Positions 947-16,475 of a stretch of 64,000 nucleotides of DNA are shown one piece after another. The translations under genes and the position numbers were made by a program. Numbering within the stretch: the first letter of the stretch is position 1; the number at the start of each line of letters is the position of its first letter. The stretch is from Patescibacteria group bacterium (GTDB taxonomy: Bacteria; Patescibacteriota; Minisyncoccia; Phycocordibacterales; DATDWN01), in assembly GCA_040384485.1 (NCBI GenBank), contig JAZKJH010000003.1, positions 7,556 to 71,555 of the forward strand, given 5' to 3'. The notes under the pieces are model-generated. The model saw only the letters and a program-made list of their open reading frames with translations, was not told the origin of the DNA and made no database searches.

Positions 947-1090
947 GGCGACCTCCCTTGTCTATGTTTGTTTGCAAAAATCAACGAACTTTATCTGGCT
1001 TAATCCTACCACCAAGCACATTTGGACACAAGTCAACCCCCTATACAAAAACCACAGCAACTTTCATTGCTGTGGTTTTTGATTTTCATT

Positions 1091-4000
1091 TTAGAATTCC
1101 AAATAATCAAACAATCTAGGAATAAAGTTTGGAATAATAGTTCCAGGTTGCTCTACTTCTAACACACACAAGTATGATGAGTCGGTACATAGACCACTCC
1201 AACCAGAGAACTTCCAGAAAGAAGATATCGGATATGCTCGAAGATAGATGACTGTTCCTTCTTCATATATCACTGGACAGTCTGTCGTTCCTGGCTGACA
1301 AGTGATACCCCCTTCGATATCTACACTACCTTTTGGAGTGGCATCGATAACAATGTTGTGTTGAGCTTGAGGGTTTGAAGCTGTACAAGTTCCACTAGGT
1401 GCTCCTCCGTTTAGACCGTTACATACCCATGTTGCACTCGCTCCCGGAGCTGGGAAGGCAGGACTGGCTGACTGAGACCCGGCAGAACAATATGTATCGC
1501 TTCCGTATGAACTAGATCCTACTGGATACGTTCTGTTTGCTGTTCCGCAGAATCCGTTTACAGGAGCAGCAGAAATAGTTACAGAGTAGTTTGTCCATGC
1601 TGAGTTAAGTCCTGGTGCATCTTGAGTTAGGGCTCTGAACGTTTTAGCTCCTGTTGTCGTCCAAGAATATGTAGTGTTTCTGCTTGTTCCTGAACTTACA
1701 TATGATACTCCAGCCGGAAGCCACTCGTCTGCAGTTCCATCCATGTTCCAGTCGACTCCGTATCTTACGGTATCGCTTTGAGCATCCGTAGCTGAGAAAG
1801 TATATGTATAACTTGTATCTGGGTAACCGCTGGTAGAACCAGAAATTGTAGGAACATTTGGAGCTGTGTTACAAGTTGCTGTTGCCGCACAAGCTTGTGA
1901 AGATGCTCCGGAACAGGTTGCTCCTCCGTATGCCGGAGTTGGGTTGGTACAAGTTCTAGTTTGAGAACTTGCAGGTAAACCGCAAGCAGTAGGACATGAT
2001 GCTGGAGACCAAGCTGACCAACCACCATCTAATGACATGTTGAAGTTGGTATCATTGTTTACCCAACCTTGATACAAACCTTGAGTATTGTGAACATAAC
2101 CAGAAATATCGTTACCTGTTGTTGGTGTCGTAAAGTTGGTGTTAGCAATAATAGTAAATGTAGTTGTTCTAGTAATTCCACTTACTGAAGTTCTACAAGA
2201 AACTAGATTTATGTACTCATGACCATAACCATATTGAATTGCGGCCACCCCTTCAGGTAAGTTGCTGCTGTTAAGACAAGTCATTTTATTCTTCTGACTA
2301 TCCCATCCAGTATAGTTGGTATCATAGTACCAAGTTAGATAACCTCTATAGTTACCGATGTTTCCGCCTTGGTAGTTAATGAGGGCATACTCGTGAGTAA
2401 TACTCGCACCTCCACCAATGCCAGTTGGATTAGTTCCAGTTACAACTACATTGTACTGAGTTGAACCATTTGGGTTAACATTTGTTGAACTGATTGTGGT
2501 GCTGACATGTGATGGATAAGCAGAAGCGAAAGTTGCAGAGATAGTTTGACTAGAAGTGATGTTGTTAAAAGTATACGCACTGACTGCTCCAACCGATGAA
2601 CCGTTTACAAGAACATCTGAAATGTAGTACCCAGCAGAAGGTGAAATCGTATATGCTTGACTGCTTCCATATGTTTTAGATGTAGCTCCTGCTGGAGAAA
2701 CAGTTCCACCAGATCCGGCTGAAGCAGTTATGGTGTAAGAGTTTAAAGCACAAGTTGCCGATACTGTACACGCACCAGTTATTGCTCCGGTGGTATAAGT
2801 TGTTCCTGAAAGAGATCCACTACAACCACTAACAGACGGTGTGCCGTAGCCTGTACTCGGAGTTACAGTAAAAGTTGTTGCTGAACCATTATTTACCGAT
2901 CGAGAACTTGGTGATATGGAACAACCCGTTCCCGCTGAAGTTGAGACATTATGTACCAGGCCAAAATTTATATCGAAGTTATCCCAACCGTCTCCAAGGT
3001 TACCGGTGTTCTGTACCGCTCCAGATATATCGTTTGCTGATCCGGGAGAAGTGAAAGCAGGATCAAACCTAACGTTAAAGTTAACTGTTCTACTGTTTCC
3101 AGAATCACTCACAGTACAAGAGTTAAGGTTGATGTATTCCGTACCGTAACCCAATCCATATACAATACCAACTCCCCCTCCACAACTCGCAGTACTACCT
3201 GGTTTTGCTGACCACAAACTACTTGCTCCTGTGTTCCACATTAGATATCCCTTGTAGTTACCTCCATTTCCACCTTGATAGTTAATAAGACCAAGTAAAT
3301 AATATAGATTAGATGCGCCTCCTGGATTAGAGCCGGTAACGGAAACTGTGTATGCAGTAGAGTTGTCAGCAACTATATTTGAAGAACTTATTGTTACACT
3401 ATCCACTGAAGGTGTACATGTGTTATTTGCTGGTGTTGTTGCGGAACAACTACTCCAACCACTCCATGATCCCTGACTGCAAGTTCTGGTTTGCGTACCT
3501 GTTGATGTGCTTCCGCAGGCATTCGCCGCAGAGGTACAACTTTGTGAAGATGCTCCAGAACAAGCTGGGTAATCTACCGTAATAGATGCCGTATCTGATG
3601 CGGCTGTTCCAGCAGCATTAACACAAGTAAAAGTATATGTTGCATTTCCTTGTCCCCATGATAAATTCCCCGAGTCATAACTGGTCGCACCAAGAGGTGC
3701 GTTAGTCCAGTTTCCAGAGTAACTACCTGAACGAGACCACGTACAAGAGGATGCATTTGTTGATGTCATTGTTATACGAAAAGATGTCGGACTCTGTACG
3801 CTAGTTGGCGTTGCAGTTGCATCAACAGTAGAAAGTGGGCACAACGCATTTGATGGAGTTACTCCTGCTGCTCCACTACATGTTCCGTTACACTGTTGTG
3901 TACCTGCGCTACCAGGGTTAGTCATCCCACAAGCGTTTGGCGAAGACGTCGCACCAGTACATGCATTGCCGTATCCCGTAGGGTTTGCTGGTGCAGTAGA

Positions 4001-5239
4001 TGAACAAGTTCCGTTACATTGCCAAGTACCATTCGCCTGAGTTTGTCCACACGCGTTAGCTGGAGATGTACATGCTGCACCATATGTGTTTCCTCCAGGT
4101 ATTGTTACTGCTGGTGCAGTAGATGAGCAGCTTCCGTTACATTGTAAAGTTCCATTTGCTTGAGTTTGTCCACACACGTTAGCTGGCGATGTACATGAGT
4201 TTCCGTATCCAGCTGGGTTTGATGGCGTTGAAGCTGAACAGCTACTCCAGCCGCTCCAACTTCCCGCATTACAAGTTCTAGTTTGAGTACCATTTGCAGT
4301 TGTACCACAGGAGTTAGCAGCGGATGTACAGCTTTGCGAAGATTCCCCAACACAAGGCGGGTAGGTCACAGTAAAGTTTTGAGTCAGCTCATTGCCAAAC
4401 CATTCGTAACCTGAATTGCCTCCTCCAATATTCCCACACTGAGTCCCATCCCATAGCTGATATGTATAGTCTGGAAAAGGCCCGTGATGCATCTGCATAG
4501 TAAGACTATAATTTCCAGGCGTAGATGGTGCAGTCAGAGTAATAGTTCTGTAGCCCCAAGAACCCCCACCATATCCACTAGGAGCAGTCGGGGGATTAGC
4601 ATAAGAACCTAGGTCATCCGAATACAAACTGAGAGACTGGCCTCCGCTCTTTTGAATAAATTTATAAAACGCTGTACTGTCCCATCCCCAACCTCCGTGG
4701 TACCACCAGGTCGTTCCGGTGTTTCTAATTCTTACTGTAAAGTTATAGGTCTGACCTATTATCATTGTTCCAGGCAATGCACTCGTTAGTTCGGCTTCTG
4801 CGGATTCTATACAACTATCAGAAATAGTGTGTACAACTCCAGGGCCTGAGCTATATGTTGCTCTATAGAAATTTGAATAACCACAAAATGTTGGAACATT
4901 CGATGCATCGTAAACATAAACGTGAACAAAAATGTTCCCTGTTTCTGGATGACTTGCAAGGTTTATGTCTGCATACCAGGTACCACCTCCCTGGTTAACA
5001 CCTGGATACCAAACTATGTCGTCCTGTCCTCCTGATTCACTCCAAGTCGGAAAGTATAAATGCCCCAATGAACCAGTAACACCATGTGCATATGCTCTTC
5101 TGGTTCCAGAGACGCCATAAACTGTATCCCCACTAGGAGCAGCGTAGGAACACCATGCTGCTTGAGCACCTACTTCACTTGGGATAATTAGGCTTCCTAA
5201 AAAAGTAATTATCAATCCCAAAAAAATGAGTTTTTTCAT
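1091..5239 (-). CDS. Giant secreted cysteine-rich surface protein (1382 aa) with TSP1-like WSxWS/QTRTC repeats, Cys-rich ~35-aa repeats and a C-terminal InlB-B-repeat-like (F.GWSG.C) domain
   Basis: Uninterrupted 4.1-kb ORF. Signal peptide MKKLIFLGLIITFLGSLIIPSEVGA. Repeated SQSCTSAAN.CG.T..GTQTRTC..GSWSGWSSCS and GGWSAWSPASCPTACG...QTRTC motifs resemble thrombospondin type 1 repeats. The C-terminal ~225 aa are identical to the downstream paralog. Confidence 0.8.
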   Translation of the reverse strand: MKKLIFLGLIITFLGSLIIPSEVGAQAAWCSYAAPSGDTVYGVSGTRRAYAHGVTGSLGHLYFPTWSESGGQDDIVWYPGVNQGGGTWYADINLASHPETGNIFVHVYVYDASNVPTFCGYSNFYRATYSSGPGVVHTISDSCIESAEAELTSALPGTMIIGQTYNFTVRIRNTGTTWWYHGGWGWDSTAFYKFIQKSGGQSLSLYSDDLGSYANPPTAPSGYGGGSWGYRTITLTAPSTPGNYSLTMQMHHGPFPDYTYQLWDGTQCGNIGGGNSGYEWFGNELTQNFTVTYPPCVGESSQSCTSAANSCGTTANGTQTRTCNAGSWSGWSSCSASTPSNPAGYGNSCTSPANVCGQTQANGTLQCNGSCSSTAPAVTIPGGNTYGAACTSPANACGQTQANGTWQCNGTCSSTAPANPTGYGNACTGATSSPNACGMTNPGSAGTQQCNGTCSGAAGVTPSNALCPLSTVDATATPTSVQSPTSFRITMTSTNASSCTWSRSGSYSGNWTNAPLGATSYDSGNLSWGQGNATYTFTCVNAAGTAASDTASITVDYPACSGASSQSCTSAANACGSTSTGTQTRTCSQGSWSGWSSCSATTPANNTCTPSVDSVTISSSNIVADNSTAYTVSVTGSNPGGASNLYYLLGLINYQGGNGGNYKGYLMWNTGASSLWSAKPGSTASCGGGVGIVYGLGYGTEYINLNSCTVSDSGNSRTVNFNVRFDPAFTSPGSANDISGAVQNTGNLGDGWDNFDINFGLVHNVSTSAGTGCSISPSSRSVNNGSATTFTVTPSTGYGTPSVSGCSGSLSGTTYTTGAITGACTVSATCALNSYTITASAGSGGTVSPAGATSKTYGSSQAYTISPSAGYYISDVLVNGSSVGAVSAYTFNNITSSQTISATFASAYPSHVSTTISSTNVNPNGSTQYNVVVTGTNPTGIGGGASITHEYALINYQGGNIGNYRGYLTWYYDTNYTGWDSQKNKMTCLNSSNLPEGVAAIQYGYGHEYINLVSCRTSVSGITRTTTFTIIANTNFTTPTTGNDISGYVHNTQGLYQGWVNNDTNFNMSLDGGWSAWSPASCPTACGLPASSQTRTCTNPTPAYGGATCSGASSQACAATATCNTAPNVPTISGSTSGYPDTSYTYTFSATDAQSDTVRYGVDWNMDGTADEWLPAGVSYVSSGTSRNTTYSWTTTGAKTFRALTQDAPGLNSAWTNYSVTISAAPVNGFCGTANRTYPVGSSSYGSDTYCSAGSQSASPAFPAPGASATWVCNGLNGGAPSGTCTASNPQAQHNIVIDATPKGSVDIEGGITCQPGTTDCPVIYEEGTVIYLRAYPISSFWKFSGWSGLCTDSSYLCVLEVEQPGTIIPNFIPRLFDYLEF
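1092..1764. repeat. Copy 1 of ~673-bp direct repeat (3' coding end of giant surface protein gene)
   Basis: Sequence beginning tagaattccaaataatcaaacaatctaggaataaag... reads the same as 5749..6421 (offset 4657 bp). Identity starts inside the stop codon and ends at ...gactccgtatc. Confidence 0.8.
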
Positions 5240-5243
5240 GTTA

Positions 5244-5624
5244 TTAAAAATTTAGAATCTGAACTTTGTCTGCTAGATACTGACCCTCCCCGTCAACTTT
5301 ATAAAAGACAACTACTCGTTGCCCAACTTTTATATCTGAAATAGAAGCTGGTATGTTTTTGTATGCATTACCTTCTTTAATTTGTTGGGTAAAAACAGTA
5401 GTGCTATCCAACAAAGCTATTGTTTGAGTGGAGCCGGCAGTCAGGGTAATAGTTTGTCCTTCCAGACTTACAACATCCGCCATAATAAAATCAGGTAATA
5501 CACCTACATTTTCATTTTGTGAGTTAATATTTTTATTTGAGGAACTTTTTTCATAAAAGTAGAAACAAAAGAGAATCACTAGAAAAACCACCAACAAACC
5601 CAAAAAAGATTTATACTTTTTCAT
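5244..5624 (-). CDS. Small N-terminally membrane-anchored hypothetical protein (126 aa)
   Basis: ORF with N-terminal TM segment, 5 bp upstream of the giant gene 1091..5239 (likely co-transcribed). Conserved 35-bp motif ~25 bp upstream. Confidence 0.5.
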   Translation of the reverse strand: MKKYKSFLGLLVVFLVILFCFYFYEKSSSNKNINSQNENVGVLPDFIMADVVSLEGQTITLTAGSTQTIALLDSTTVFTQQIKEGNAYKNIPASISDIKVGQRVVVFYKVDGEGQYLADKVQILNF

Positions 5625-5647
5625 AATACCTATATTCTACTATACAT

Positions 5648-5683
5648 AAAAATAGAATACACTTTTTGCATTGTGGATAGTAC
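5648..5683 (-). promoter_or_regulatory. Conserved upstream motif AAAATAGAATACAyTTTTTkCAkTTGTGGATAGTrC (copy 1)
   Basis: Near-identical 35-bp sequence (29-30/35) also present at 8305..8340 upstream of the paralogous giant gene. Contains a TATCCACA-like (DnaA-box-like) core and AT-rich -10-like elements. Confidence 0.45.
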
Positions 5684-5747
5684 ACCAAACGGCTGTATAA
5701 AAACACTGCTTCAAATCAGGTTTGGCTAGGTTACTTTTTTCGTGACC

Positions 5748-8222
5748 CTAGAATTCCAAATAATCAAACAATCTAGGAATAAAGTTTGGAATAATAGTTC
5801 CAGGTTGCTCTACTTCTAACACACACAAGTATGATGAGTCGGTACATAGACCACTCCAACCAGAGAACTTCCAGAAAGAAGATATCGGATATGCTCGAAG
5901 ATAGATGACTGTTCCTTCTTCATATATCACTGGACAGTCTGTCGTTCCTGGCTGACAAGTGATACCCCCTTCGATATCTACACTACCTTTTGGAGTGGCA
6001 TCGATAACAATGTTGTGTTGAGCTTGAGGGTTTGAAGCTGTACAAGTTCCACTAGGTGCTCCTCCGTTTAGACCGTTACATACCCATGTTGCACTCGCTC
6101 CCGGAGCTGGGAAGGCAGGACTGGCTGACTGAGACCCGGCAGAACAATATGTATCGCTTCCGTATGAACTAGATCCTACTGGATACGTTCTGTTTGCTGT
6201 TCCGCAGAATCCGTTTACAGGAGCAGCAGAAATAGTTACAGAGTAGTTTGTCCATGCTGAGTTAAGTCCTGGTGCATCTTGAGTTAGGGCTCTGAACGTT
6301 TTAGCTCCTGTTGTCGTCCAAGAATATGTAGTGTTTCTGCTTGTTCCTGAACTTACATATGATACTCCAGCCGGAAGCCACTCGTCTGCAGTTCCATCCA
6401 TGTTCCAGTCGACTCCGTATCGGATTTGGTCGCCTTGTGGATCAGTCGCAGTAAATGTGTATGTGTAACTTGTGCTTGGATATCCTGTCGTTGGACCAGA
6501 TATTGTTGGGGCGTTTGCTGATGTATTACATGATGCTAAAGGAGAAGTAGTTTGAGCTGGGCTAGTTGCTCTTGACCCCGACTGCCCACCAGCATTTGAT
6601 GCTCTAACAGTATATGTATATGCAGTTGAACCACTCAAGCCAGTGTCTGAATGAGACGTACCTGTACTGTTATAAATCACTGCTCCATTTCTGTAAACTT
6701 GATAACTTGTCGCTCCAGACACAGAAGACCATGACAAATTGATAGTGCCGGTACCGCAAGTACTCGGTGTTGCGGTAAGAGATGCTGGAATAGCTGGTGG
6801 ATTTGCAGTCCATGTAGCAGTTAGACTTTGACCACCAGATGGCATAGTTGAAGCTAATGCTGGAGACCATCCTGCAAAAATGAATCCGGCCCTAGTCGGG
6901 TTTGCTGGTGCTGAAACAGCAGTACCGTATTGTTGCGTAATAGTTGAAACGGCAGAACCACCTGCTGAGTTGAAGGTTATGTTGTACGAATTTACGGTAC
7001 ATCCAGTTGCTGAATACGTACCAGACAATGAACCGTTTGAACAAGTTCTTGTTTGCGATGAACATACATCAGCAGCTGATGCAGAGTAAGCTGTGTTTGA
7101 ATACCCGTGAGCTACTGTTCCCCATGGACTTGAACAGCTAGCTGGACCTTCTACAGAACAAGATGTTGCTGTGTAGCTTCCTGACATACTTCCATTTGAA
7201 CAAGTTCTAGTTTGAGGTGCACATGATGAGCCGTATGGTACTGATGAAGATTGGTAAGCTGTGTTTGAATACCCGTGAGCTACTGTTCCCCATGGACTTG
7301 AACAGCTAGCTGGACCTTCTACAGAACAAGATGTTGCTGTGTAGCTTCCGGTCAGTGTTCCGCTTGAACATGTTCGTGTTTGGGATGCACAAGAGGAACC
7401 GTATGGGACCGAAGATGTTTGGTATGCAGTGTTTGAGTATCCATGCGTTACTGCTCCCCAAGGGGTACTCGCACAACCTGGGGTACAAGATGTAACTGTG
7501 TAGCTTCCTGACATGCTTCCGTTTGAACAAGTTCTAGTTTGAGGAGAACATGCGCCTGCTGGAGACGACTCAGAGTATGCAGTGTTAGAGTACCCGTGAG
7601 CTACTGTTCCCCATGGACTAGAACAACCACAATAATTAGCGACAGCGGTTGGACCACTAGACGCAGATGGTGACGTGCCACCTGCATTTGAAGCAGTTAT
7701 TGTATATGAGTAGGATCCTCCTATTGTAAGTCCGGTGTCTGAAATAGCTAGAGACCCTCCGTTGTATATAAGTGTGCCGTTTCTATATACTTGGTAACTT
7801 GTTGCTCCTGCCACTGCATTCCATGAAAGATTTATCCAGTTATTACCACAAGAACTGGGTCCTGACCAAAAACCTGTTACCGTTTCCAGTATTGAACCGT
7901 AACAATAAGCCACATCTTGATTCCCTAGGTTTCTAGTATAACCTTCGTACACATATCCGCTTTGAAAATAACAAATGTTTGAAAAGGTATATGGATTTAC
8001 TGTTTGATATTCGGTTGTACCTCCCCCATTATTTGAACACGAAACTCTATACTCGTGGGCAGTTCCGTCCCAACTGCCAGATGTTGGGGTGGCTAAAATG
8101 GTTATGTCAGCATAACCACCGCTTTGACTAACTTGTACCGAACAAACTTCTTCAGCCAAAAGCGTACCTGCCGAAAAAACATATAAAAATGCGAGCGCAA
8201 AAACAAATATAAAATTTTTCAT
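5748..8222 (-). CDS. Giant secreted cysteine-rich surface protein paralog (824 aa) with FN3-like, InlB-B-repeat-like and four tandem ~56-aa Cys-repeats
   Basis: Signal peptide MKNFIFVFALAFLYVFSAGTLLA. FN3-like ...ATSYQVYRNG... modules. GFIFAGWSP InlB-B-like repeat. Four tandem SPWGTVAHGYSNTAY..C..QTRTCSNGS.SGSYTATSC repeats. C-terminus identical to gene 1091..5239. Confidence 0.8.
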   Translation of the reverse strand: MKNFIFVFALAFLYVFSAGTLLAEEVCSVQVSQSGGYADITILATPTSGSWDGTAHEYRVSCSNNGGGTTEYQTVNPYTFSNICYFQSGYVYEGYTRNLGNQDVAYCYGSILETVTGFWSGPSSCGNNWINLSWNAVAGATSYQVYRNGTLIYNGGSLAISDTGLTIGGSYSYTITASNAGGTSPSASSGPTAVANYCGCSSPWGTVAHGYSNTAYSESSPAGACSPQTRTCSNGSMSGSYTVTSCTPGCASTPWGAVTHGYSNTAYQTSSVPYGSSCASQTRTCSSGTLTGSYTATSCSVEGPASCSSPWGTVAHGYSNTAYQSSSVPYGSSCAPQTRTCSNGSMSGSYTATSCSVEGPASCSSPWGTVAHGYSNTAYSASAADVCSSQTRTCSNGSLSGTYSATGCTVNSYNITFNSAGGSAVSTITQQYGTAVSAPANPTRAGFIFAGWSPALASTMPSGGQSLTATWTANPPAIPASLTATPSTCGTGTINLSWSSVSGATSYQVYRNGAVIYNSTGTSHSDTGLSGSTAYTYTVRASNAGGQSGSRATSPAQTTSPLASCNTSANAPTISGPTTGYPSTSYTYTFTATDPQGDQIRYGVDWNMDGTADEWLPAGVSYVSSGTSRNTTYSWTTTGAKTFRALTQDAPGLNSAWTNYSVTISAAPVNGFCGTANRTYPVGSSSYGSDTYCSAGSQSASPAFPAPGASATWVCNGLNGGAPSGTCTASNPQAQHNIVIDATPKGSVDIEGGITCQPGTTDCPVIYEEGTVIYLRAYPISSFWKFSGWSGLCTDSSYLCVLEVEQPGTIIPNFIPRLFDYLEF
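5749..6421. repeat. Copy 2 of ~673-bp direct repeat
   Basis: Same sequence as 1092..1764. Encodes the shared C-terminal domain ...FWKFSGWSGLCTDSSYLCVLEVEQPGTIIPNFIPRLFDYLEF. Confidence 0.8.
7088..7700. repeat. Intragenic tandem repeat, period 168 bp, ~3.7 copies
   Basis: aagctgtgtttgaatacccgtgagctactgttccccatggacttgaacagctagctggaccttctacagaacaagatgttgctgtgtagcttcc recurs at 7088, 7256 and 7424 (diverged), with a fourth at 7577. Encodes the ~56-aa Cys-repeats. Confidence 0.75.
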
Positions 8223-8304
8223 GAGATTATGCGTAGATTTAAATTTAGATTAAACCAAGATGTAATATTCAAACAGCACTAACTATATATAGCTTACTAC
8301 ACAT

Positions 8305-8340
8305 GAAAATAGAATACATTTTTTCAGTTGTGGATAGTGC
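8305..8340 (-). promoter_or_regulatory. Conserved upstream motif (copy 2)
   Basis: gaaaatagaatacattttttcagttgtggatagtgc, ~85 bp upstream of the start of gene 5748..8222. Paralogous to 5648..5683. Confidence 0.45.
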
Positions 8341-8342
8341 GA

Positions 8343-9689
8343 CTATATCCCCTGTCTTGAAAGTAGAGATTTTATCGTTTTGAGGGCGATTTTTATATCA
8401 AGCCAAAACGAGCGGTTCTTTATATAGTATATGTCGTAAGTCAGTTTCTCTTTTGTCAGAGACACTTCAGCTCCGTGGTGTGGGTGAATTTCCTGGTGGA
8501 TCTGAGCCCAGCCAGAGAGTCCTGGTTTTATAAGGTGTCTAATATTGTAATATGGTATTTCTTTGTCGTAGATAGAAACTCCGGAAGGCAACTCTGGTCT
8601 CGGTCCAATAAGGGAGATATCCCCTTTTATTACATTCCATAATTGAGGAAACTCATCTATTCTAGTTTTTCGAAGTATGTTACCAACTCTTGTCACGCGG
8701 TTTTCACTTCCTGCGTTCAAATCAACAATGTTTTTACTCATTGAACGAAATTTATAAAGCTTGATAAGTTTGCCGTCCTTTCCAACCCTTTCTTGAGAAA
8801 TAAATATCGAACCCTTGTCATCTAGTTTTATTGCAATGTAAACAAAAGGATAAAACAAAAGTGATGCGATTCCTAGAATTGCTGACAAAGTTATGTCCAT
8901 AATTCTCTTAAGAAAATCATAAGTGAAGTTTGGTGAGATGGATATGTTTTCCAAAAACCAACTATAGGTAACTAGGGACAGAGGGATGCGGTCGAAAATG
9001 TCCTCGTATATTTTATGAGAATCAATGAATCTAACTTTTGAAAATACCAAGTTATACAAATGTGGGAGCAGAGTGCTTATTTTTTCGTTTGCGAAATCAA
9101 CCGCAATTATTTTTATATCATTTGAATACACTTGCCTTATAATATCCTCTTGAATGTCGATAGAATCAATATTGTTTACATCTACCGAAGAAACAAACTG
9201 CAAGTCATATCTGTTGTTGCCATTTACTTCTGACAATAACTCTTTCATTTCACCTCCAGCTCCTATTATTAACGCAGGCTGCTTTTCCTTTTTTGTTATA
9301 ACTGACAAACCATACAGTCTCCAAAAAAGTACACCGGCAAAAGAAATAAGTAGATACAAAAACAATATAGTTTTTGGCGTGATACCAAAAAAAGGAAAAG
9401 CATAGAAAAAAACTACCGCTACAATACTGTTAGCAACTTGAGCATTAAAAACTATTGAAGGTAGCTTACTTTTAAGTATAAGGGTATGCTTTTCATACAA
9501 TCCTGCAATAAAATAAACTATGAACCACAATATGAATAGTAGAGAAAAAGGTATAAGGTGATCTAAATAAAGCTCTTTTTCTGGAAATTCTGTAAAGCGG
9601 ATAGAGAGTGTCAGCCAAAGTGAAAACGCAAAGAAAAATACATCTCCCAAAAAGAGTAGGACGGGTTCTTTTCTAGTAAGAATATCCAT
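8343..9689 (-). CDS. Polyprenyl-phosphate sugar phosphotransferase (WbaP/CpsE-like bacterial sugar transferase)
   Basis: C-terminal ...KLYKFRSM...RIDEFPQLWNVIKGDISLIGPRPE... bacterial sugar transferase signature. Multiple N-terminal TM helices. Confidence 0.85.
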   Translation of the reverse strand: MDILTRKEPVLLFLGDVFFFAFSLWLTLSIRFTEFPEKELYLDHLIPFSLLFILWFIVYFIAGLYEKHTLILKSKLPSIVFNAQVANSIVAVVFFYAFPFFGITPKTILFLYLLISFAGVLFWRLYGLSVITKKEKQPALIIGAGGEMKELLSEVNGNNRYDLQFVSSVDVNNIDSIDIQEDIIRQVYSNDIKIIAVDFANEKISTLLPHLYNLVFSKVRFIDSHKIYEDIFDRIPLSLVTYSWFLENISISPNFTYDFLKRIMDITLSAILGIASLLFYPFVYIAIKLDDKGSIFISQERVGKDGKLIKLYKFRSMSKNIVDLNAGSENRVTRVGNILRKTRIDEFPQLWNVIKGDISLIGPRPELPSGVSIYDKEIPYYNIRHLIKPGLSGWAQIHQEIHPHHGAEVSLTKEKLTYDIYYIKNRSFWLDIKIALKTIKSLLSRQGI

Positions 9690-9732
9690 ATGAAGTGCTA
9701 ATATAGTATGCTAAAATGACTACAAACGCAAT

Positions 9733-10872
9733 ATGAACCAGGAAAAAACAGCTATAAATAAGGTTTGTTTTGTTGTCACTAAGGGCGTATGGGGAGGTGC
9801 TCAAAAGTATGTATACAACCTAGCAACAGGCCTGCCCAAAGATAGATACGAAGCTGTAGTTGTATGTGGCGAAGGAGGAGAACTTGTGAGCAGGCTGGAA
9901 GCAGCTCGGATACGTGTATACACCATAAACACCTTAAAACGTGACATTTCAATAAAATCAGAACTCCAAAGTTTCTTGCAACTTTTCAATATACTCAGAA
10001 CTGTGCGGCCCAATGTTTTACATCTCAATAGCCCAAAAGCGGGAGGGATCGGAGCCGTGGCTGGAAGACTACTAGGTATACCTAAAATAATTTTCACTTC
10101 CCACGGGTTTGCTTTCAATGAGATTCGCTCCCCTTTTCAAAAAGCCGTGATCAGGTTGTTCTCTTGGTTAATCTTGATATTGAACAAGCAAGTTATTGTT
10201 ATCTCTGACAAAGAAAAAGCGGATGCTTTGAATATGCCCTTTATATCAGAAAATAAAATTACCTTAATAAAAAACGGCGTTGAGAGTATTGGTTTTAAAG
10301 ACCGCGAACTTGCTCGAACGGAATTGATACAAATAGTAAATAAAGAAATCCCAAAAAACGTAACCTGGATTGGCACAGTCGCTGAACTACATAAAAACAA
10401 AGGTTATGAATATATGCTTTCTGCCTTGAGTAAACTCTCCTACCCTTTTGCTTACTTCATCATCGGTGCTGGTGAAGAAAAGGAAAAAATAGAAAAGTTA
10501 ATCCAGGAATTAAATTTATCCGACAAGGTTTTCATGGTTGGGTTCTTAAACCACGCCAGTGAACACTTGAAAGCCTTCGACATTTTCACACTGACATCAG
10601 TCAAGGAGGGTCTACCTTATACCGTTATAGAAGCTGGATTTGCAGGAGTACCCGTAGCTGCAAGCAACGTTGGTGGTATACCAGACATAATAGAAAACGG
10701 AACAAGCGGAATACTAGTGACAAAAGAAAAACCTGGAGAAATCCTAAAAGCTCTGGAGTACGTAAATGAACATCGAAACGAAGTGGAAACATTTGCACAA
10801 AACCTTAAACAAAAAGTTGAGAAAGAATTTTCACTTGATGTAATGTTGGAAAAAACAATAAAGTTGTACTGA
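9733..10872 (+). CDS. Glycosyltransferase family 4 (GT-B fold)
   Basis: EGLPYTVIEAGFAGVPVAASNVGGIPDIIENGTSGILV = GT4 E-x7-E region. Confidence 0.85.
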   Translation: MNQEKTAINKVCFVVTKGVWGGAQKYVYNLATGLPKDRYEAVVVCGEGGELVSRLEAARIRVYTINTLKRDISIKSELQSFLQLFNILRTVRPNVLHLNSPKAGGIGAVAGRLLGIPKIIFTSHGFAFNEIRSPFQKAVIRLFSWLILILNKQVIVISDKEKADALNMPFISENKITLIKNGVESIGFKDRELARTELIQIVNKEIPKNVTWIGTVAELHKNKGYEYMLSALSKLSYPFAYFIIGAGEEKEKIEKLIQELNLSDKVFMVGFLNHASEHLKAFDIFTLTSVKEGLPYTVIEAGFAGVPVAASNVGGIPDIIENGTSGILVTKEKPGEILKALEYVNEHRNEVETFAQNLKQKVEKEFSLDVMLEKTIKLY

Positions 10873-10947
10873 AAAAAATTATTAGATTTTTATAAAATAA
10901 AAGACGGTTTTGGAACATTGCTCCAAAACCGTCCGCATCAGACACTC

Positions 10948-11493
10948 TCACCTAACCAAAACCTTCTCCCTCAAAGTGCATGGGATAGAAATTCCTGTAT
11001 TCTTCACAAGAGAGGTCTTTGACCCAGAAGCAACCTTAACTATATATCGATCTCCCAAAACCGCAAAGGAAACATCAGTAACAACTCTAGACTGACCAAG
11101 ATCTCCAAATCTGAAGTCAACCAGTCCTTCATCACTTACTTCGGACGATGTCTTCCCTTTTGAAAAACCGAGTAGAACCGCATATCCCTTATTCAAGTAC
11201 AAGAACTGAGAATCCCCGGAGGCATTAGTTTCCTCCAATACGGAAGGAGAAACTGTTACGTCAACTGGGCTACTTTCCAATCGACATTCGAATTGAAAGA
11301 ACTTATTTGGGTCACCTGACAATCGAGAAACATCGATGATTGCCTGATGCACCGTATGGCTCCCATCCTCTTTCGCGATAGAAACACTCAAGTAGGCATG
11401 TGGCGGTTTACTTACATTCTCCCAGTATTTCGTCGCGCAACTCGATGAGACCAAAAGAACACCCAACGCCGCTAGTCGCATATACACTGTCAT
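10948..11493 (-). CDS. Hypothetical lipoprotein
   Basis: MRLAALGVLLVSSSCAT signal peptide with lipobox. No recognisable catalytic motif. Confidence 0.45.
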   Translation of the reverse strand: MTVYMRLAALGVLLVSSSCATKYWENVSKPPHAYLSVSIAKEDGSHTVHQAIIDVSRLSGDPNKFFQFECRLESSPVDVTVSPSVLEETNASGDSQFLYLNKGYAVLLGFSKGKTSSEVSDEGLVDFRFGDLGQSRVVTDVSFAVLGDRYIVKVASGSKTSLVKNTGISIPCTLREKVLVR

Positions 11494-11545
11494 TAAGCCC
11501 CCCGGCTCATAGTATAGTATTTCTAAAAAACTTCAAATGTAGAAA

Positions 11546-12685
11546 CTATACTCCGTCTAGTTCATTTTTTGAAAGATCTTTGTGAATACTCCTACTCGAT
11601 CCCCTCATACCCATGAGCATCCCAAGTCCCAAAAATTCTGTTAGCAAGTGACTCCCTCCATAACTCATAAACGGAAGTGTGTTTCCTGTTACTGGAAGTA
11701 AACCGATATTCATTCCCACATGAATCACTGTATGAACTACAAATAAAATAGTGAGTCCCGCACCAAATAATATCTCGAAGTTCCCTCCTCCGTTAAAAGA
11801 TATTTTGAGCATTCTCCAAAAAACTAGTCCGTAAAGAATAAACAGAAGACCTACTCCGATAAACCCCCACTCTTCTGCAAAAGATGCGAACATAAAGTCG
11901 GTTTCGTACTCTGGTAAATACTGAAGCTTACTCTGTGTTCCGTATCCTATCCCCTTACCGAGTACACCTCCTGAACCTACCGCAATAACTGACTGATAGG
12001 CGTTATACCCTGTACCCCGAATATCTGCGAGAGGATTGATGAAGTTTGCTATTCGAGCCTTTTGATATGGTTTGAAAACTGCTGTCCACAAAAACCCGAA
12101 CGAAAGAAGCCCTATCAAAAAAACTCCGAACAAATGTTTTTTGGAAATACCTGAGACTAACACCATTCCTAACCAGACAAAAAATATAATAATAGCAGAA
12201 CCAAAGTCAGGTTGTAAAAATACGAGTCCAAAAATCACAAACACATAAAAACCGGATACTAGTATGTGTCTCACGTTGGCTATTTCTATATGACGCCGTG
12301 AAAAATATTTTGCAAGAATTAAAATAACCACTAGCTTGATAGGGTCTGCAGGTTGAAAAGAAAAGAACCCCAAGTTAAACCAACTCTGAGCACCCTTGAA
12401 AACACTCCCCACGATAAACAGCAACGAGAGTAGCCCAACGGACAGCATAAAAAGCGAGACTATTATTTTTGTATTCTTCAGAAATGACCAGTTTATCTGA
12501 CTGGTGATTATAAATGCGACTATTGAAACTATAAGCCAGATTGATTGCCGTTCAAAAAAAGCACTCTCTCCCACAAAAGAGTTCATGGTAACTAGTCCAG
12601 CCAAACTCAAAAAAATAACACTTAAAAACAATGTTAAATCAATATTCTTAAAAAGAGTTTTATAAAGCTGACCTAATATGTTCAT
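11546..12685 (-). CDS. SEDS-family peptidoglycan glycosyltransferase (FtsW/RodA)
   Basis: ~10 TM helices plus conserved GSGGVLGKGIG...LPE.ETDFMFA...PFMSYGGS motifs. Confidence 0.9.
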   Translation of the reverse strand: MNILGQLYKTLFKNIDLTLFLSVIFLSLAGLVTMNSFVGESAFFERQSIWLIVSIVAFIITSQINWSFLKNTKIIVSLFMLSVGLLSLLFIVGSVFKGAQSWFNLGFFSFQPADPIKLVVILILAKYFSRRHIEIANVRHILVSGFYVFVIFGLVFLQPDFGSAIIIFFVWLGMVLVSGISKKHLFGVFLIGLLSFGFLWTAVFKPYQKARIANFINPLADIRGTGYNAYQSVIAVGSGGVLGKGIGYGTQSKLQYLPEYETDFMFASFAEEWGFIGVGLLFILYGLVFWRMLKISFNGGGNFEILFGAGLTILFVVHTVIHVGMNIGLLPVTGNTLPFMSYGGSHLLTEFLGLGMLMGMRGSSRSIHKDLSKNELDGV

Positions 12686-12690
12686 ATAGA

Positions 12691-13446
12691 CTAAGGTATT
12701 CTATGAATAACGTTTACAACACTGACTGGCCTTTCAAAAGGTTTTTGCCATGTAAATACAAAGTCCTGAGTCTCTCCCCTAAAAAGGTTCGTCACATAGG
12801 TTCGGGAAGTTCCTATCACGTTCTCGTCAGCATCCATCACAAGCACAACTAACTCTATATCTTTTATATCTTTTATGGACCTGTTGGTCACTGTCCCTCT
12901 CACCTTTGGTGCAGTCTCGGCAGTTTCTACTGAACCATATGTAACATTGACCTCTGGTTCTACTGATGTATCTTTCTGCCAAGGTGAAAAAGCTGTGAAG
13001 CGGAACTCGGCAAATTTGGGAACTGTATGACGCACAATAATACCGGTTTTAAATATCGCAAATCTTTTGTTTTTCGGAATAGAAGTGGAACCACTTTCAA
13101 CTAAAATAGGTCGGTTGTCTTCGTCAAAGAGTCTGAAGTCATATGTAGCTTTGGCATTTTTAGAGTTTATGTTTGGATTTTCCACTAACGCAGTCACACT
13201 ATATACATCTCCAGAAATAGGAAAAACTTTTGCCCAGATAACTGTTGGGGAAAGTGCGTCGTTGGAACACAGGTTCACACAGCTTCCGCCACAGTCTATC
13301 CCGGCCTCAGTACCGTTTTTTACACCGTCAGTACAAGTAGGTGCTTGATAAAGCAGATTCCATGCCAAGATAACTACACCGACCAAAACAACAAACAAAA
13401 AACTACCCCCGTACACAAATCTTCTTTTTGTAGACCACATTGCCAT
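12691..13446 (-). CDS. Hypothetical membrane-anchored protein
   Basis: ORF with N-terminal TM segment and Cys-rich stretch CTDGVKNGTEAGIDCGGSCVNLC. Sits in an operon-like array. Confidence 0.45.
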   Translation of the reverse strand: MAMWSTKRRFVYGGSFLFVVLVGVVILAWNLLYQAPTCTDGVKNGTEAGIDCGGSCVNLCSNDALSPTVIWAKVFPISGDVYSVTALVENPNINSKNAKATYDFRLFDEDNRPILVESGSTSIPKNKRFAIFKTGIIVRHTVPKFAEFRFTAFSPWQKDTSVEPEVNVTYGSVETAETAPKVRGTVTNRSIKDIKDIELVVLVMDADENVIGTSRTYVTNLFRGETQDFVFTWQKPFERPVSVVNVIHRIP

Positions 13447-13471
13447 ATCAACATATTATAGCAAAATTAGC

Positions 13472-16400
13472 CTAGTTCGCTAGACACAAAGTCGTGTCGC
13501 AAAATTCAAGATTATCTACAATAATAGACCCTGGAATTGTTTCGTATACATCGTCAGAGGTGCCTAGTATCTTGGAATTACTTACAATAACATCTGCAAC
13601 AGATCGACCAACGGGACTTACTGCCTCTACTGCATACCCGGATTCAAAATCGGAAATGGTAAGCCCTGTCGCGTCGACCACTCCACCTACTACATACAAA
13701 CCACTTTGACCTGTGTTGTTGATGTTTAAATCAGTGATAGTTGTAGTTGAAAAATATAGTGCGAGACCGTTATTCTCCGAACCATCAATCGTAGTACTAC
13801 TTATCTCGGCGAACGAATTATATATTGCGATGCCGTCATTGCCTGCATTTTCTATAACAATATTATCCATTACCATTATAGAGCTGTTATAACCTGCAAC
13901 AGCTTCCCCTGTTGTGCTTGCAATGGTTACATTTTCTAAAACTAAAGATGCACCGTTATAAGCATTTATTCCACTTCCATTGTTCAAAAAACTTGAATTA
14001 GTTATTTTTACTTTGGATTCATTTAATAATCCGATAGTTTCTGTGTTCTTAAATAAAACGTTTTCAAAAGTACTTGTTGCTTGGTTGGTGTTAAACCAGA
14101 AAAATCCTCCCGAACTTTCGGATGCTGATTCAAAAGTAGTTATCTCTCCTGCCCCGCCTGCAACAACCTTACCTAGAACCAAAAAGTTTCCGAAGTTTGG
14201 ATCATCGTCTTTTATAAACATTATCTCTGAACCTTCCTCGATAGTTAGTGTGGACGATGCAGAAACAATAATAGTATCGAAGACTGCATATGGACCGTTT
14301 TTAGAATCTAAAACTAAATCTTCCTCTATCAATGTACCTCCATCATTTATCAGATAACTTAAACTGTTATGCTCTCCGGGAGTAGCGTTTACTTCTTCCC
14401 CATCCGAGTCTGTGCCATTCTTTATAAAACTCAGGTTGTAACCCCAGTTTGAAAAGTCGGATCCAAGATTCATAGATTTTTTTCGTTCTATACTTTCCCA
14501 ATTTCCCTGGTTATAAATATCTGTACTGTCTTCAATTTTCCAAAATGGAGTAGAATCAAAACGATCCTCTCCATAAAGCAAAACTATTTCTTCTCCATAA
14601 TCGTTGAAGATATTTTCTACTGGCTCATCCCAACTAAAAATACTGGCTCCATTGTCAACACTAACTGAGTTACTCCCTCTCATCAGTAATAAATATGAAT
14701 TTGGAGCCAAAGTTCCGACCAGAGGTATAATTGTATTTCCATTATTTATTTTCAATCCCCAATGAGACATATCTATACTGTGGCTGGTGTTATTTTTAAG
14801 TTCCAACCACTCATCTCCATCGCTTGCTGATGTCCCCCAAAAAGCTATCTCATTTATAGCTACCGGAATTGTTGCCACAGAAAAGCTAGCGGTAGTGGTG
14901 GGTGGTTCTGTGGATCCAGCGAGTATTGGAGAGAGCTCAAATGTGTAGTCAGAAAAATCTTCTAAGGTAAGTGCTATGCTTGTAGAAGTTGTTGTTGAGA
15001 CTGCACCGTTTAAAGAAATGTTGTACCCTAAAGCACCAGTTTCTGCCTCCCATGATATTGAAACAACAGTATCGGATATTAGACATCTGGATATAGATAT
15101 GGATTCATTACATTGGTTGATGGTAATCTTTTGAATTGGAGCGGGAGTTATACCACCCGAGTTCGCATTGTTTTGATTTGTAGGAGCTGTTTTTACTTTT
15201 CCACCCGCATCACTTTTTGGCATAATCGGTACGATTTGAATAATCTCTGGTATCGGTTTCTCCTCAACTTTCTCTTTTTCTATTTCTTTCTCCTCATCTT
15301 TTTGTGGAAGTTTTTCTACTGTCGAAGAAGGTGTGGTTTTACTCACAACCTTAGTTACTTCCTTATCTTTCAGTTCATCTGGTTTTTGCTCAGTGTCAGA
15401 AGAAGATGTTTGCGCAACAGATTCTATCTGGTTTGAACTGAACATGGAGTTCAAACCGCTTGCGAGCAATCTCCCTGAATTGAAAACGAAGTGACTAGTT
15501 TGTTCTATACCCTTGTAAACCAAAGTTCCACCAGTTTCTAAAATATTTTTACTAACTCCATATAGCTGTACAGTAGTATCCAAACCAAAAACAACTACAT
15601 CACTCCCAGTATTTAAAACAAAATTTGATGTTTTATACAGCCCCGATATGGTTGCCGAGCCTGTGTTGGCGACTGGATCAGCAACTACAAACATAGCTCC
15701 AGTTATTTTATGCCCTAGTGATATTTTAGGAGGATTAATGCAAGGACCATCTGGTTTTTGTATCGTATTATCCTGAAGACGATTCAGTGATTTTTCTATA
15801 TCAGAAACTATTCTTCCAGCTTGGTGTTTTAAGTAAGTTGTAGAAAACCCATGACCATTTGAATCCCCATCTTTTGAAATATCTATAGTTATGTTGGGAG
15901 TCATTATATTCCTACGTAAAGTGCTGCCCACCAAACCAGCAATAACTTTGTCGGTGGTGGATGTGAGCCATAGTCCTTCACCAGAAATCCTTCCTGATGG
16001 AGTAGCTAACGCATACACCCCTATAGACTCTTTAGGTACTCCACCTTCCTGCCCTGCCACCACATCATAAAAACTGTTGGCATAAAAATTGCCCTGTGAA
16101 TGGGCAACAATTAAAACTTTTTGAGTTGTGATCTTCTGACTCGCGGTTTTTAACATCTCGGTCAAATCGTAGTCTTGAATGATTTCATCATCCAATAGTC
16201 CCTGATATGCTGCCTTGAGTACATCCCCTAACCCAGCCAAGTGTGAAGGGTTGTGTATAAAATCAATTTTGAGCGGTTGGTTGTTGAAATTAAAACCAAA
16301 TTTTCTTTCAAGTTCTCTTTTATTGTCTCTGGCTTCTTCTTCGTTTGTAAAAATACCATTAAGGGTCAAAATCGTGTACCCGTCTTTCGAACAAGCATCA

Positions 16401-16474: not shown

Positions 16475-16475
16475 T

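Follow-up and report, generated by a model that had tools for sequence, protein, structure and literature searches.

In Helicobacter pylori, the babA, babB and babC genes of the Hop family have near-identical ends and different ligand-binding parts, and these ends permit intrachromosomal recombination and gene conversion (PMC4271554). A second point of reference is the thrombospondin type 1 repeat (TSR), which in the literature that we found is treated as a domain of animals and apicomplexans (PMC3417536). Here we compare with these systems, and with the internalin-type proteins of Listeria, a tandem pair of genes for cysteine-rich proteins in an uncultivated, ultra-small Patescibacteria group bacterium. 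Attachment to other cells is the presumed way of life of Patescibacteria, and to our knowledge almost nothing is known of the proteins that mediate this cell contact. The DNA analysed is a 64-kb stretch, called the window below.

The gene pair and its surroundings

Two adjacent minus-strand genes, for proteins of 1382 and 824 aa, had been described by the first-pass annotation, and ORF analysis found both as described; we call them p1 and p2 (Table 1). Each protein begins with what looks, by eye, like a Sec-type signal peptide, each is rich in S, T, G and A, and Cys makes up ~3.8% of the residues. Along with the domain matches given below, these features agree with the earlier description of secreted, modular, Cys-rich surface proteins, and suggest that p1 and p2 are disulfide-rich and adhesin-like; adhesion itself would be their presumed activity. 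That the two are tandem paralogs with unlike N-terminal regions and a perfectly common 3' end was also correctly noted.

A small membrane protein gene lies 4 nt upstream of p1, co-oriented with it as had been proposed, and is kept in the same position in both of the syntenic relatives that we compared, L004 (GCA_964483675.1) and L006 (Ga0163151_10001883). Both loci had been said to be preceded by a common 35-bp motif. The motif is real and its full length is 51 nt, with one promoter-like copy upstream of the operon of the small gene and p1 and one upstream of p2. Its 24-nt core occurs at these two sites only in the window. When the window was searched with the full 45-nt motif patterns, allowing up to 3 mismatches, there was no match, because the two copies differ by a small indel.

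In L004 and L006 the gene order is FtsW, glycosyltransferase, Bac_transf, the small gene, and then one big gene; a homolog of the downstream lipoprotein is also found in L006. The single big genes of L004 and L006 (1178 and 1206 aa) encode p1-type modules together with one or two p2-type 4-Cys units, and the L004 protein, P0002, carries Flg_new as well. Missing from both relatives, in a BLASTN comparison with the window, is a 2657-nt p2 cassette. The L004 junction joins the left flank of the motif upstream of p2 directly to the right flank of the motif upstream of the small gene. The edges of the cassette thus appear to be the copies of the 51-nt motif and not the 673-nt repeat discussed below, as judged from L004, the one relative against which the junction was aligned. 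None of the loci L001, L004, L005 and L006 has a gene pair of this kind, in tandem and identical at the 3' end.

Table 1. Positions of the features of the p1/p2 region in the window
Feature	Position	Strand	Description
p1	1091..5239	-	ORF, 1382 aa; 100% identical to P0001, NCBI 'MAG: GBS Bsp-like repeat-containing protein [Patescibacteria group bacterium]'
p1 module order	1091..5239	-	signal peptide, GBS Bsp-like repeat, unassigned beta modules, Cys-rich repeats, Flg_new_2-like, two copies of an unassigned ~165-aa domain, one TSR, shared C-terminus
GBS_Bsp-like repeat, p1 aa 58-120	4880..5068	-	PF08481, 54.6 bits against a cut-off of 31.6, E 1.1e-14; passes
Cys-rich block, p1 aa 296-470	3830..4354	-	one 'C..SSQSC / CG..QTRTC / WSGWSSC' unit, then three ~40-aa 4-Cys repeats (CTSPANxCGQTxxGTxQCNGxCS)
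Second 'C..SSQSC / CG..QTRTC / WSGWSSC' unit, p1 aa 558-600	3440..3568	-	from sequence
Putative TSR, p1 aa 1071-1125	1865..2029	-	six Cys, WSAWS...CG...QTRTC
PKD-like domain, p1 aa 1123-1222 (p2 aa 565-664)	1574..1873	-	phmmer and Foldseek against 4xed
Terminal InlB B-repeat-like module and tail ...FIPRLFDYLEF-COOH	1094..1369 (p1), 5751-6026 (p2)	-	Flg_new_2, 15.1 bits against a cut-off of 23.6
p2	5748..8222	-	ORF, 824 aa; 100% identical to P0121, NCBI 'MAG: InlB B-repeat-containing protein [Patescibacteria group bacterium]'
p2 module order	5748..8222	-	signal peptide, unknown N-domain, FN3-like, four 4-Cys units, Flg_new, FN3-like, shared C-terminus
Four tandem ~55-aa 4-Cys units, p2 aa 198-409	6996..7631	-	C.SPWG.V.HGYSNTAY...C..QTRTC.NG..SG.Y...C
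Listeria-Bacteroides (InlB B) repeat, p2 aa 413-453	6864..6986	-	Flg_new PF09479, 40.4 bits against a cut-off of 27
Small membrane protein gene	5244..5624	-	126 aa, N-terminal TM helix by eye, weak DUF5666
Terminator-like hairpin	1046..1081		15-bp stem, 10 nt downstream of p1 stop; consensus scan only
Promoter-like 51-nt motif, upstream of small gene/p1 operon	5631..5681	-	82% identical to the copy upstream of p2
Promoter-like 51-nt motif, upstream of p2	8288..8338	-	82% identical to other copy
p2 cassette	5682..8338	-	one motif copy, p2 and 66-nt spacer
Identical tract, copy 1	1092..1764	-	last 224 codons of p1 and two stop-codon bases; exact-run extension
Identical tract, copy 2	5749..6421	-	last 224 codons of p2; exact-run extension
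Diverged paralogous flank of p1	1765..1945	-	homologous to 6422-6602, ~63-71% nt identity; alignments and dS
Diverged paralogous flank of p2	6422..6602	-	homologous to 1765-1945; alignments and dS

Modules of the two proteins

Do p1 and p2 carry thrombospondin type 1 repeats? Both had been credited with repeated WSxWS...CG...QTRTC units of this type. One canonical unit exists, in p1, so that the claim survives for a single copy in that protein and fails for p2. When PDB sequences were searched with phmmer, the p1 segment matched human thrombospondin-1 (1lsl/7yyk) with an E value of 7.7e-16, and all 29 matches listed are proteins that contain TSRs. Against a profile of seven CPR TSRs the E value is 3.4e-21, and a CPR TSR profile built without p1 and its ortholog gives 44.4 bits. 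The tryptophan motif WSAWS (aa 1074-1078) aligns to WSHWSPW and WGPWSPW of thrombospondin-1, and the six Cys have the canonical spacing, CPTACG...QTRTC...GGATCSG...QAC...ATC; strand B has one Arg (TRTC) and not RxRxC. The Pfam model TSP_1 (PF00090) is matched over positions 2-49 of its 49 at 17.9 bits (E 0.0035), below the gathering score of 21.6, and this match is visible only if the TSR segment is scanned alone, the whole-protein Pfam and NCBIfam scans having missed it. An AF2 model of the segment has two long strands at pLDDT 75-86, and the Foldseek results for the multi-domain model were dominated by PKD domains. By its sequence, then, this segment is best taken as a single genuine TSR, though one below the Pfam cut-off.

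Units with similar motifs occur at two other places in p1 (aa 296-336 and 558-600), and a 32-nt stretch of the second is 84% identical to the CSGASSQAC segment of the TSR. The TSR profile matches these units piecewise, in fragments of 0-6 bits, with the pieces in the order C-strand, B-strand, A-strand. They do not score as TSRs. Nor do they qualify as circularly permuted TSRs, as the order is not a simple permutation and the scores are insignificant. The Cys-rich block to which the first belongs has no Pfam match, and no match among PDB sequences at E<=10; its ~40-aa 4-Cys repeat is also present in P0005-P0007, P0012 and P0013. Farther along p1, at aa ~840-905, Flg_new_2 scores 20.3 bits, just under the cut-off.

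The motif WSxWS is absent throughout p2. The four QTRTC units there represent a repeat of another kind, a widespread and unannotated 4-Cys repeat with weak fold matches to FnI and CCP modules; they were rejected as TSRs, having no detectable match to TSR models or to solved TSRs, and the repeat block matches no PDB sequence at E<=10. The InlB B-repeat proposed for these proteins is well founded in p2, where Flg_new exceeds its cut-off. For the proposed FN3-like modules, fn3 scores 15.3 bits on p2 aa 480-552, under the Pfam threshold of 25, the related RGI_lyase beta-sheet match reaches 23.4 bits against a cut-off of 27.8, and NCBIfam CbhB gives a partial match with an E value of 1.3e-9.

At their C-termini the two proteins share a cassette, modelled by AF2 at a mean pLDDT of 87, that runs from a PKD-like domain through a 4-Cys module and a divergent InlB B-repeat to an F..R.F.Y.EF-COOH tail. 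The PKD-like domain matches 4xed by phmmer (E 2.2e-11) and by Foldseek (E 6e-8, TM(target) 0.86), and the PKD domain of ColG by Foldseek (E 4e-4), with AF2 pLDDT >90; a Pfam scan of the domain gave no PKD match. For the terminal module phmmer found 5174 representative relatives, and all four of the four sampled are multi-copy Flg_new_2 proteins. The tail is kept in 14 relatives and lacking in 147 others, and shorter P-[VI]-F-x-E-[FN]-COOH tails occur on other CPR-type surface proteins. Both proteins end at ...RLFDYLEF, with neither a transmembrane segment nor a basic stretch after it. Known C-terminal signals (LPXTG, PEP-CTERM, GlyGly-CTERM, PGF-CTERM, MYXO-CTERM and others) were rejected: the layout of signature, TM segment and basic stretch is missing, and NCBIfam scans of the tail region and of four tail-bearing relatives gave no match. 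In the literature we found no report of a Patescibacteria sorting signal. It is tempting to suppose that the cassette, and above all its F-x-x-R-x-F-x-Y-x-E-F-COOH tail, is a new Patescibacteria sorting or anchoring signal that docks with a partner of its own, for instance the membrane protein of the small co-transcribed gene. We regard this idea as speculative and rather unlikely. If it were true, gene conversion would keep both paralogs compatible with the partner, and modules of eukaryote-like, adhesive type, the TSR among them, would be shuffled at the other end. The conserved tail offers a concrete hypothesis for the retention or export of such proteins.

Origin of the identical 3' ends

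The terminal ~224 codons of p1 and p2 had been reported as base-for-base identical from within the stop codon, and exact-run extension agrees: 673 of 673 nt are the same. The exact match begins with the second stop-codon base (TAA versus TAG), and the last 224 aa of the proteins are identical. The 3' boundary is the stop codon, where homology between p1 and p2 ends, and the 5' boundary falls inside the PKD-like domain. Beyond that boundary the sequences remain homologous for ~180 nt. Over the adjoining 42 codons (126 nt) identity is 63% and dS is saturated and not computable, and sliding windows of 60 columns over the flank give 70-72% identity. Within the tract, the same 224 codons differ from those of the L004 and L006 orthologs at dS 1.26-1.61, while p1 and p2 have zero differences. 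Between species it is in these C-terminal 224 aa that conservation peaks (dN ~0.10, versus 0.17-0.29 elsewhere; dN/dS 0.06-0.09). Could purifying selection have kept the two copies alike? It cannot explain the zero synonymous differences, because the same codons differ from the orthologs at high dS.

Earlier, gene conversion and a very recent partial duplication had been offered side by side. A near-identical tract set in far more diverged homologous sequence, with the identity extending over synonymous sites that are saturated in the flank and at high dS against orthologs, is the pattern that conversion leaves. Since the flank is homologous yet only ~63-71% identical and its synonymous sites are saturated, the tract reads as a recent conversion inside an old paralogy, and not as a fresh partial duplication. 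Similarity to the orthologs did not point to a donor. At 77-78% nt identity the tract is no closer to one of L004 and L006 than to the other, and the flank gives contradictory answers: over the 42 codons next to the tract on its 5' side, p2 is nearer to L004 (83% aa, p1 69%) and p1 nearer to L006 (79% aa, p2 67%).

What history accounts for the locus? We think it probable that p1 and p2 are adhesin-like products of one mosaic gene, by way of duplication, partition of modules and conversion of the 3' ends. A tandem duplication would have copied the ancestral mosaic gene along with its promoter motif. Of the two descendants, p1 would have retained an N-terminus of Bsp-like (wall-binding) type, along with the Cys-rich repeats, the pair of ~165-aa domains and the one TSR, and p2, with its different N-terminus, the 4-Cys units and the InlB-type repeat. 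The last 673 nt would then have been homogenised recently by non-reciprocal homologous recombination between the copies. We infer that duplication, rather than loss, lies behind the difference in p2 between this genome and its relatives; p2 may instead have been lost in both relatives and not gained in this lineage. The C-terminus may have been kept uniform for a common anchoring, export or partner interaction.

How do other explanations fare? That a 673-nt piece was pasted onto an unrelated neighbour very recently, with no earlier paralogy, would fit the sharp edges of the identity on both sides, but beyond the 5' boundary ~180 nt are clearly homologous between p1 and p2, belong to the same PKD-like domain, and have diverged to about the between-species level. 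The upstream motif, moreover, is duplicated too, and old (82% identical), so this explanation seems to us very improbable indeed. An artefact of assembly or polishing has in its favour that the DNA comes from a metagenome-assembled genome (P0001 and P0121 lie on a 225-kb NCBI MAG contig) and that the exact repeat exceeds the typical length of a short read. A de Bruijn assembler can merge near-identical copies and traverse the node twice, so that similar 3' ends could have been collapsed into one consensus used twice, or the two-gene arrangement could be chimeric; the 'perfect' identity may be one of about 97-100%. Against this, 66 unique nt lie between tract copy 2 and the diverged (82%) copy of the motif, and therefore the p2 cassette is not joined to its surroundings via the identical tract. 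Both ORFs, too, are uninterrupted and in frame across the tract boundaries. Even a collapse would need copies roughly 95% or more alike, versus 63-71% in the flank, and recent homogenisation would still be required. We judge an artefact unlikely.

One might think that direct repeats of this length, efficient substrates for RecA, serve a programmed switch, and the first-pass annotation had suggested that recombination between them deletes the intervening 4.6-kb segment; swapping of heads would be another way to alter the displayed surface protein. Adhesin paralogs with near-identical ends do recombine elsewhere, for example babA and babB of H. pylori (PMC4271554). Both p1 and p2 carry the repeat at their 3' ends, however, so that a deletion between the repeats would drop the small gene and p1 irreversibly, and would leave p2 unchanged with no new chimera. 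The relatives differ by lacking the p2 cassette, and the one junction aligned, that of L004, lies at the motif and is not of the 1764/6421 type. Within the window the tract has two copies only, there is no second repeat of its size, and no further pair of repeats could act as donor; the part converted is the conserved and not the variable part of the protein; and there are no homopolymer or SSR tracts. We consider a switch of this kind quite improbable. Related systems were also considered and set aside. Cassette-based antigenic or phase variation (of the pilE/pilS, vlsE or tprK type) does not fit, as both genes are complete, with start codons and promoter-like motifs of their own, and therefore neither is a silent cassette; here again it is the conserved part that is converted. 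A DGR was rejected for want of an imperfect TR/VR-like repeat pair in the window, and SSR-based phase variation for want of SSR tracts.

Comparison with known systems

If the history of duplication, partition and conversion is right, the surface proteins of Patescibacteria evolve like other adhesin families, by duplication, exchange of modules and concerted evolution of a C-terminal cassette. Their kit of modules includes what is by sequence a bona fide thrombospondin type 1 repeat, an animal-type domain. Gene conversion is itself ordinary, and no major concept is altered; as adhesin-family evolution the case is interesting but fairly ordinary. The modules are not peculiar to this locus. Other CPR surface proteins (P0005, P0023, P0025, P0243, P0246 and others) are built from the kit seen in p1 and p2: TSR (precomputed PF00090), ~40-aa 4-Cys repeats, Flg_new_2, the ~165-aa domain, and the cassette of PKD-like domain, 4-Cys module and B-repeat, with F.EF-type tails.

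Like the bab genes, p1 and p2 are paralogous surface-protein genes with near-identical ends. The bab genes, however, occupy dispersed loci, have both 5' and 3' ends in common, and encode an outer-membrane beta-barrel terminus, whereas p1 and p2 are in tandem and share the 3' end only. In the bab genes it is the variable part that is replaced by conversion, with a change of binding phenotype as the result. In p1 and p2 the converted tract is a conserved module, and therefore no phenotypic switch is predicted. With the internalin-type InlB B-repeat proteins of Listeria, p2 shares a repeat that passes the Flg_new cut-off, and the relatives of the terminal module are multi-copy Flg_new_2 proteins. 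Unlike these, p1 and p2 lack LRR domains as well as any GW or LPXTG anchor, and their terminal module bears a tail of its own.

As to the TSR, we found no literature on type 1 repeats in Patescibacteria or other bacteria, the matches having concerned type 3 repeats or eukaryotes. The p1 repeat differs from eukaryotic TSRs in its bacterial host, in the single Arg of strand B in place of RxR, in its score below the Pfam cut-off, and in being a single copy rather than an array; machinery for C-mannosylation or O-fucosylation is not expected in such a host. It resembles TSR2 and TSR3 of thrombospondin-1, and the repeats of properdin, UNC5, ADAMTS13 and apicomplexan TRAP and CSP, in having WSxWS, CG, QTRTC, NPxPxxGG and six Cys in the canonical order. 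The likeness to TRAP may go further, in that the p1 repeat, too, would be part of a surface protein, on a cell whose life is probably spent attached to another.

An identical tract at the 3' ends of two paralogs

The two adjacent minus-strand genes of the first-pass annotation, p1 and p2, are present as open reading frames, and in NCBI both sit on a single 225-kb MAG contig recorded as 'Patescibacteria group bacterium', where p1 (P0001) is named 'GBS Bsp-like repeat-containing protein' and p2 (P0121) 'InlB B-repeat-containing protein'. Both N-termini, judged by eye, are signal-peptide-like, and both proteins are S/T/G/A-rich, with Cys at ~3.8% each. The last ~224 codons had been described as identical from within the stop codon, and base-by-base extension of the match bears this out: a single exact run begins with the middle base of each stop codon (TAA in p1, TAG in p2), so that the last 224 residues of the two proteins are identical. 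No other repeat of comparable size was found across the 64-kb window.

Features of the locus and its surroundings, in window coordinates
Feature	Position	Strand	Remarks
p1	1091..5239	minus	ORF, 1382 aa
Small membrane-protein gene	5244..5624	minus	ORF, 126 aa; 4 nt upstream of p1
p2	5748..8222	minus	ORF, 824 aa
Identical tract	1092-1764 = 5749-6421		673 nt
C-terminal tail	1094-1130 and 5751-5787	minus	F-x-x-R-x-F-x-Y-x-E-F-COOH; last ~12 codons of p1, p2
~40-aa 4-Cys repeat region	3830-4354 (p1 aa 296-470)		CTSxANxCGQT..GT.QCNG.CS...P.NP.GYG
Four QTRTC units	6996-7631 (p2 aa 198-409)	minus	~55-aa 4-Cys repeat
Motif, small-gene copy	5631-5681		51-nt, promoter-like
Motif, p2 copy	8288-8338		51-nt, promoter-like
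Segment holding p2	5682-8338
Gene downstream of p1	1-~960	minus	lipoprotein-like; ORF runs past window start
Adjoining cell-envelope genes	8343-17078
Class I aminoacyl-tRNA synthetase	39850-43269	minus	tRNA-synt_1 + Anticodon_1 + DUF5915

How did the two genes come to share this tract? Homology between them extends ~180 nt past it, inside the same PKD-like domain, but is there diverged, with 63% nucleotide identity and saturated dS over 42 codons, and 70-72% identity in sliding windows. The 3' limit of the tract coincides exactly with the limit of homology. Against orthologs in two syntenic relatives, L004 (GCA_964483675.1) and L006 (Ga0163151_10001883), the 224 codons show a dS of 1.26-1.61 and a dN of ~0.10. 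Zero differences in 673 nt, all synonymous sites included, beside an old diverged flank are the mark that a recent non-reciprocal transfer between pre-existing paralogs leaves; purifying selection as the source of the identity is rejected on the same grounds. No other part of the protein is as constrained as the shared C-terminal cassette; this suggests that the cassette may serve an anchoring, export or partner role common to p1 and p2. We think it probable that these are adhesin-like tandem paralogs whose common cassette is held uniform through gene conversion.

An identity produced by the assembler seems rather unlikely, as a collapse would itself need two nearly identical copies and would not account for the arrangement, copy 2 being followed by unique sequence. 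Programmed switching through recombination of the tract, raised as a possibility in the first-pass annotation, is unsupported and in our view very unlikely: deletion between the repeats would remove the small gene and p1 and leave p2 unaltered, both genes look expressible, and searches of the window turned up neither donor cassettes nor SSRs nor repeats of DGR type. What distinguishes this locus from that of the relatives compared is a motif-bounded cassette holding p2. That annotation had also left gene conversion and recent partial duplication side by side. To a fresh duplication of the tract we give almost no credence, contradicted as it is by a flank 5' of the tract that is homologous but diverged; of the two, conversion is the better reading.

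Modules and the thrombospondin type 1 repeat

Thrombospondin type 1 repeats (TSRs; Pfam TSP_1, PF00090) had been claimed for both proteins, and one canonical TSR is present, at p1 aa 1071-1125. Whole-protein Pfam and NCBIfam scans did not detect it; scanned alone, the segment scores 17.9 bits, below the Pfam cut-off of 21.6, yet covers the full model. Its matches among solved-structure sequences are TSR-containing proteins exclusively: human thrombospondin-1 TSR2/3 (E 7.7e-16), UNC5, ADAMTS13, properdin, BAI1 (vasculostatin) and complement C6-C8. A profile from seven Patescibacteria (CPR) TSRs finds p1 at E 3.4e-21, and one excluding p1 and its ortholog gives 44.4 bits on p1 and essentially zero on p2. 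Precomputed PF00090 matches occur in retrieved metagenomic/Patescibacteria proteins (P0005, P0023, P0025, P0243, P0256, P0257, P0261-P0264, P0267). Together, these solved-structure, profile and PF00090 matches argue that the p1 TSR, albeit under the Pfam cut-off, belongs by sequence to the TSP1 family and is a genuine domain, recurrent in the group.

The claim does not extend to p2, from whose sequence WSxWS is absent, nor to p1 aa 296-336 and 558-600, rejected as TSRs with fragmentary scores of 0-6 bits. Their pieces run C..SSQSC, CG..QTRTC, WSGWSSC, unlike the TSR order, and the two units are apparently variants of the ~40-aa 4-Cys repeat. That repeat, in p1, has neither a Pfam nor a PDB sequence match; long arrays of it fill many CPR-type proteins (e.g. 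P0005-P0007, P0012, P0013), and two p1 copies have an added WSGWSSC and CSG.SSQSC, resembling shuffled TSR strands. A GBS Bsp-like repeat (aa 58-120, 54.6 bits), Cys-rich repeats and a ~165-aa domain in two copies are also found in p1, the last two without family assignment.

The ~55-aa repeat of p2, C.(PW/FN)G..[VI]AHG.SVTAY...C.SQTRTC.NG.LSG.Y...C, occurs in 967 copies over 113 retrieved proteins (e.g. P0122, P0131, P0160), at 7-12 per protein; named carriers are few and mostly Bdellovibrio-like, and the majority have no Pfam annotation. A PDB sequence search with the p2 unit block gave zero matches. The AF2 model (26-sequence alignment) has pLDDT >90 across most of units 2-4, with weak fold neighbours (FnI, CCP, vWC), and the repeat appears to be an undescribed family. 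InlB-B-repeat-like modules, also claimed earlier, are bona fide at p2 aa 413-453 (Listeria-Bacteroides repeat, 40.4 bits); Flg_new_2 matches in p1 are weak, and FN3-like matches in p2 sub-threshold.

The shared C-terminus and its tail

Three modules make up the cassette: a PKD-like domain, similar to 4xed in sequence (E 2.2e-11) and, with Foldseek, in structure (TM(target) 0.86); a 4-Cys module, NG.CG...W.C.G.NGG..C.A; and a divergent InlB B-repeat under the Pfam cut-off. Modelled with AF2, p1 aa 1060-1382 reaches a mean pLDDT of 87. At E<=1e-3 the terminal B-repeat finds 5174 representative relatives, and all four sampled from the top-150 matches are multi-copy Flg_new_2 proteins. The tail, carried in the window by p1 and p2 only, is kept in 14 cassette relatives (including P0002, P0003, P0175, P0240-P0246, P0249), whereas 147 other B-repeat relatives all lack it. 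The tail is matched by no NCBIfam or Pfam model and has no transmembrane segment after it, and its residues in the p1 model are predicted to be disordered despite their conservation in sequence. Shorter P-[VI]-[FW]-x-E-[FN]-COOH tails terminate other CPR-type surface proteins. The conserved tail is a candidate for an unrecognised sorting or anchoring tag.

The locus in relatives, and known systems

L004 and L006 share the order FtsW, glycosyltransferase, Bac_transf, small gene and a single large gene, L006 having in addition the downstream lipoprotein homolog. Mosaic in make-up, the large genes (1178 and 1206 aa) combine a p1-type N-terminus, the ~165-aa domain, a TSR and 1-2 p2-type 4-Cys units; Flg_new is also in P0002, the large protein of L004. 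The segment holding p2 is missing from both (in L006 by BLASTN alone), and the L004 junction aligns to the left flank of the p2 motif copy and the right flank of the small-gene copy, so that the observed structural polymorphism is a motif-bounded p2 cassette, consistent with tandem duplication and then module partition, or with the relatives having lost it. In L004 an IS200-type (Y1_Tnp) transposase gene (2944-3561) separates the glycosyltransferase gene from that for FtsW; by gene order, the window has no counterpart.

The small membrane protein is conserved in the three genomes (L004 7081-7461, L006 6764-7174); judged by eye it begins with a TM helix, and it matches DUF5666 weakly and ends in ...QILNF or ...QVLNF. 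Only 4-6 nt separate its gene from the large gene, which suggests translational coupling and functional partnership. The motif is present also at L004 7024-7078. Its small-gene copy in the window ends only ~7 nt ahead of the ATG, and a -10-like hexamer, TAGAAT, precedes the start by ~11 nt; such proximity implies that the transcript would be leaderless or have a very short leader. The p2 copy lies 66 nt upstream of its ATG.

The protein encoded downstream of p1 has a lipobox-like ...NISCGG and a zinc-metalloprotease-like HELMHILGLNH, no Pfam match at E<=0.001, and a homolog of 30% identity at the same position in L006. The adjoining cell-envelope genes encode a Bac_transf sugar transferase, a GT4 glycosyltransferase and FtsW/RodA, beside a 1000-aa beta-helix/lamin-tail-domain protein; the S/T-rich p1 and p2 proteins could be glycosylated. 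Farther away, the aminoacyl-tRNA synthetase has an inserted His_Phos_1 (histidine-phosphatase) domain (aa 497-662).

The main points of interest are the TSR in CPR and the conserved C-terminal tail. In the literature found, TSP1 figures as an adhesion domain of animals and apicomplexans (PMC3417536); we found no published work on it in Patescibacteria, and automatic annotations already mark it in relatives. Concerted evolution in an adhesin family is described for babA/babB of H. pylori (PMC4271554). The p1/p2 pair resembles babA/babB in the concerted evolution of adhesin-type paralogs, but differs in its tandem arrangement and in that the conserved, rather than the variable, part is converted.
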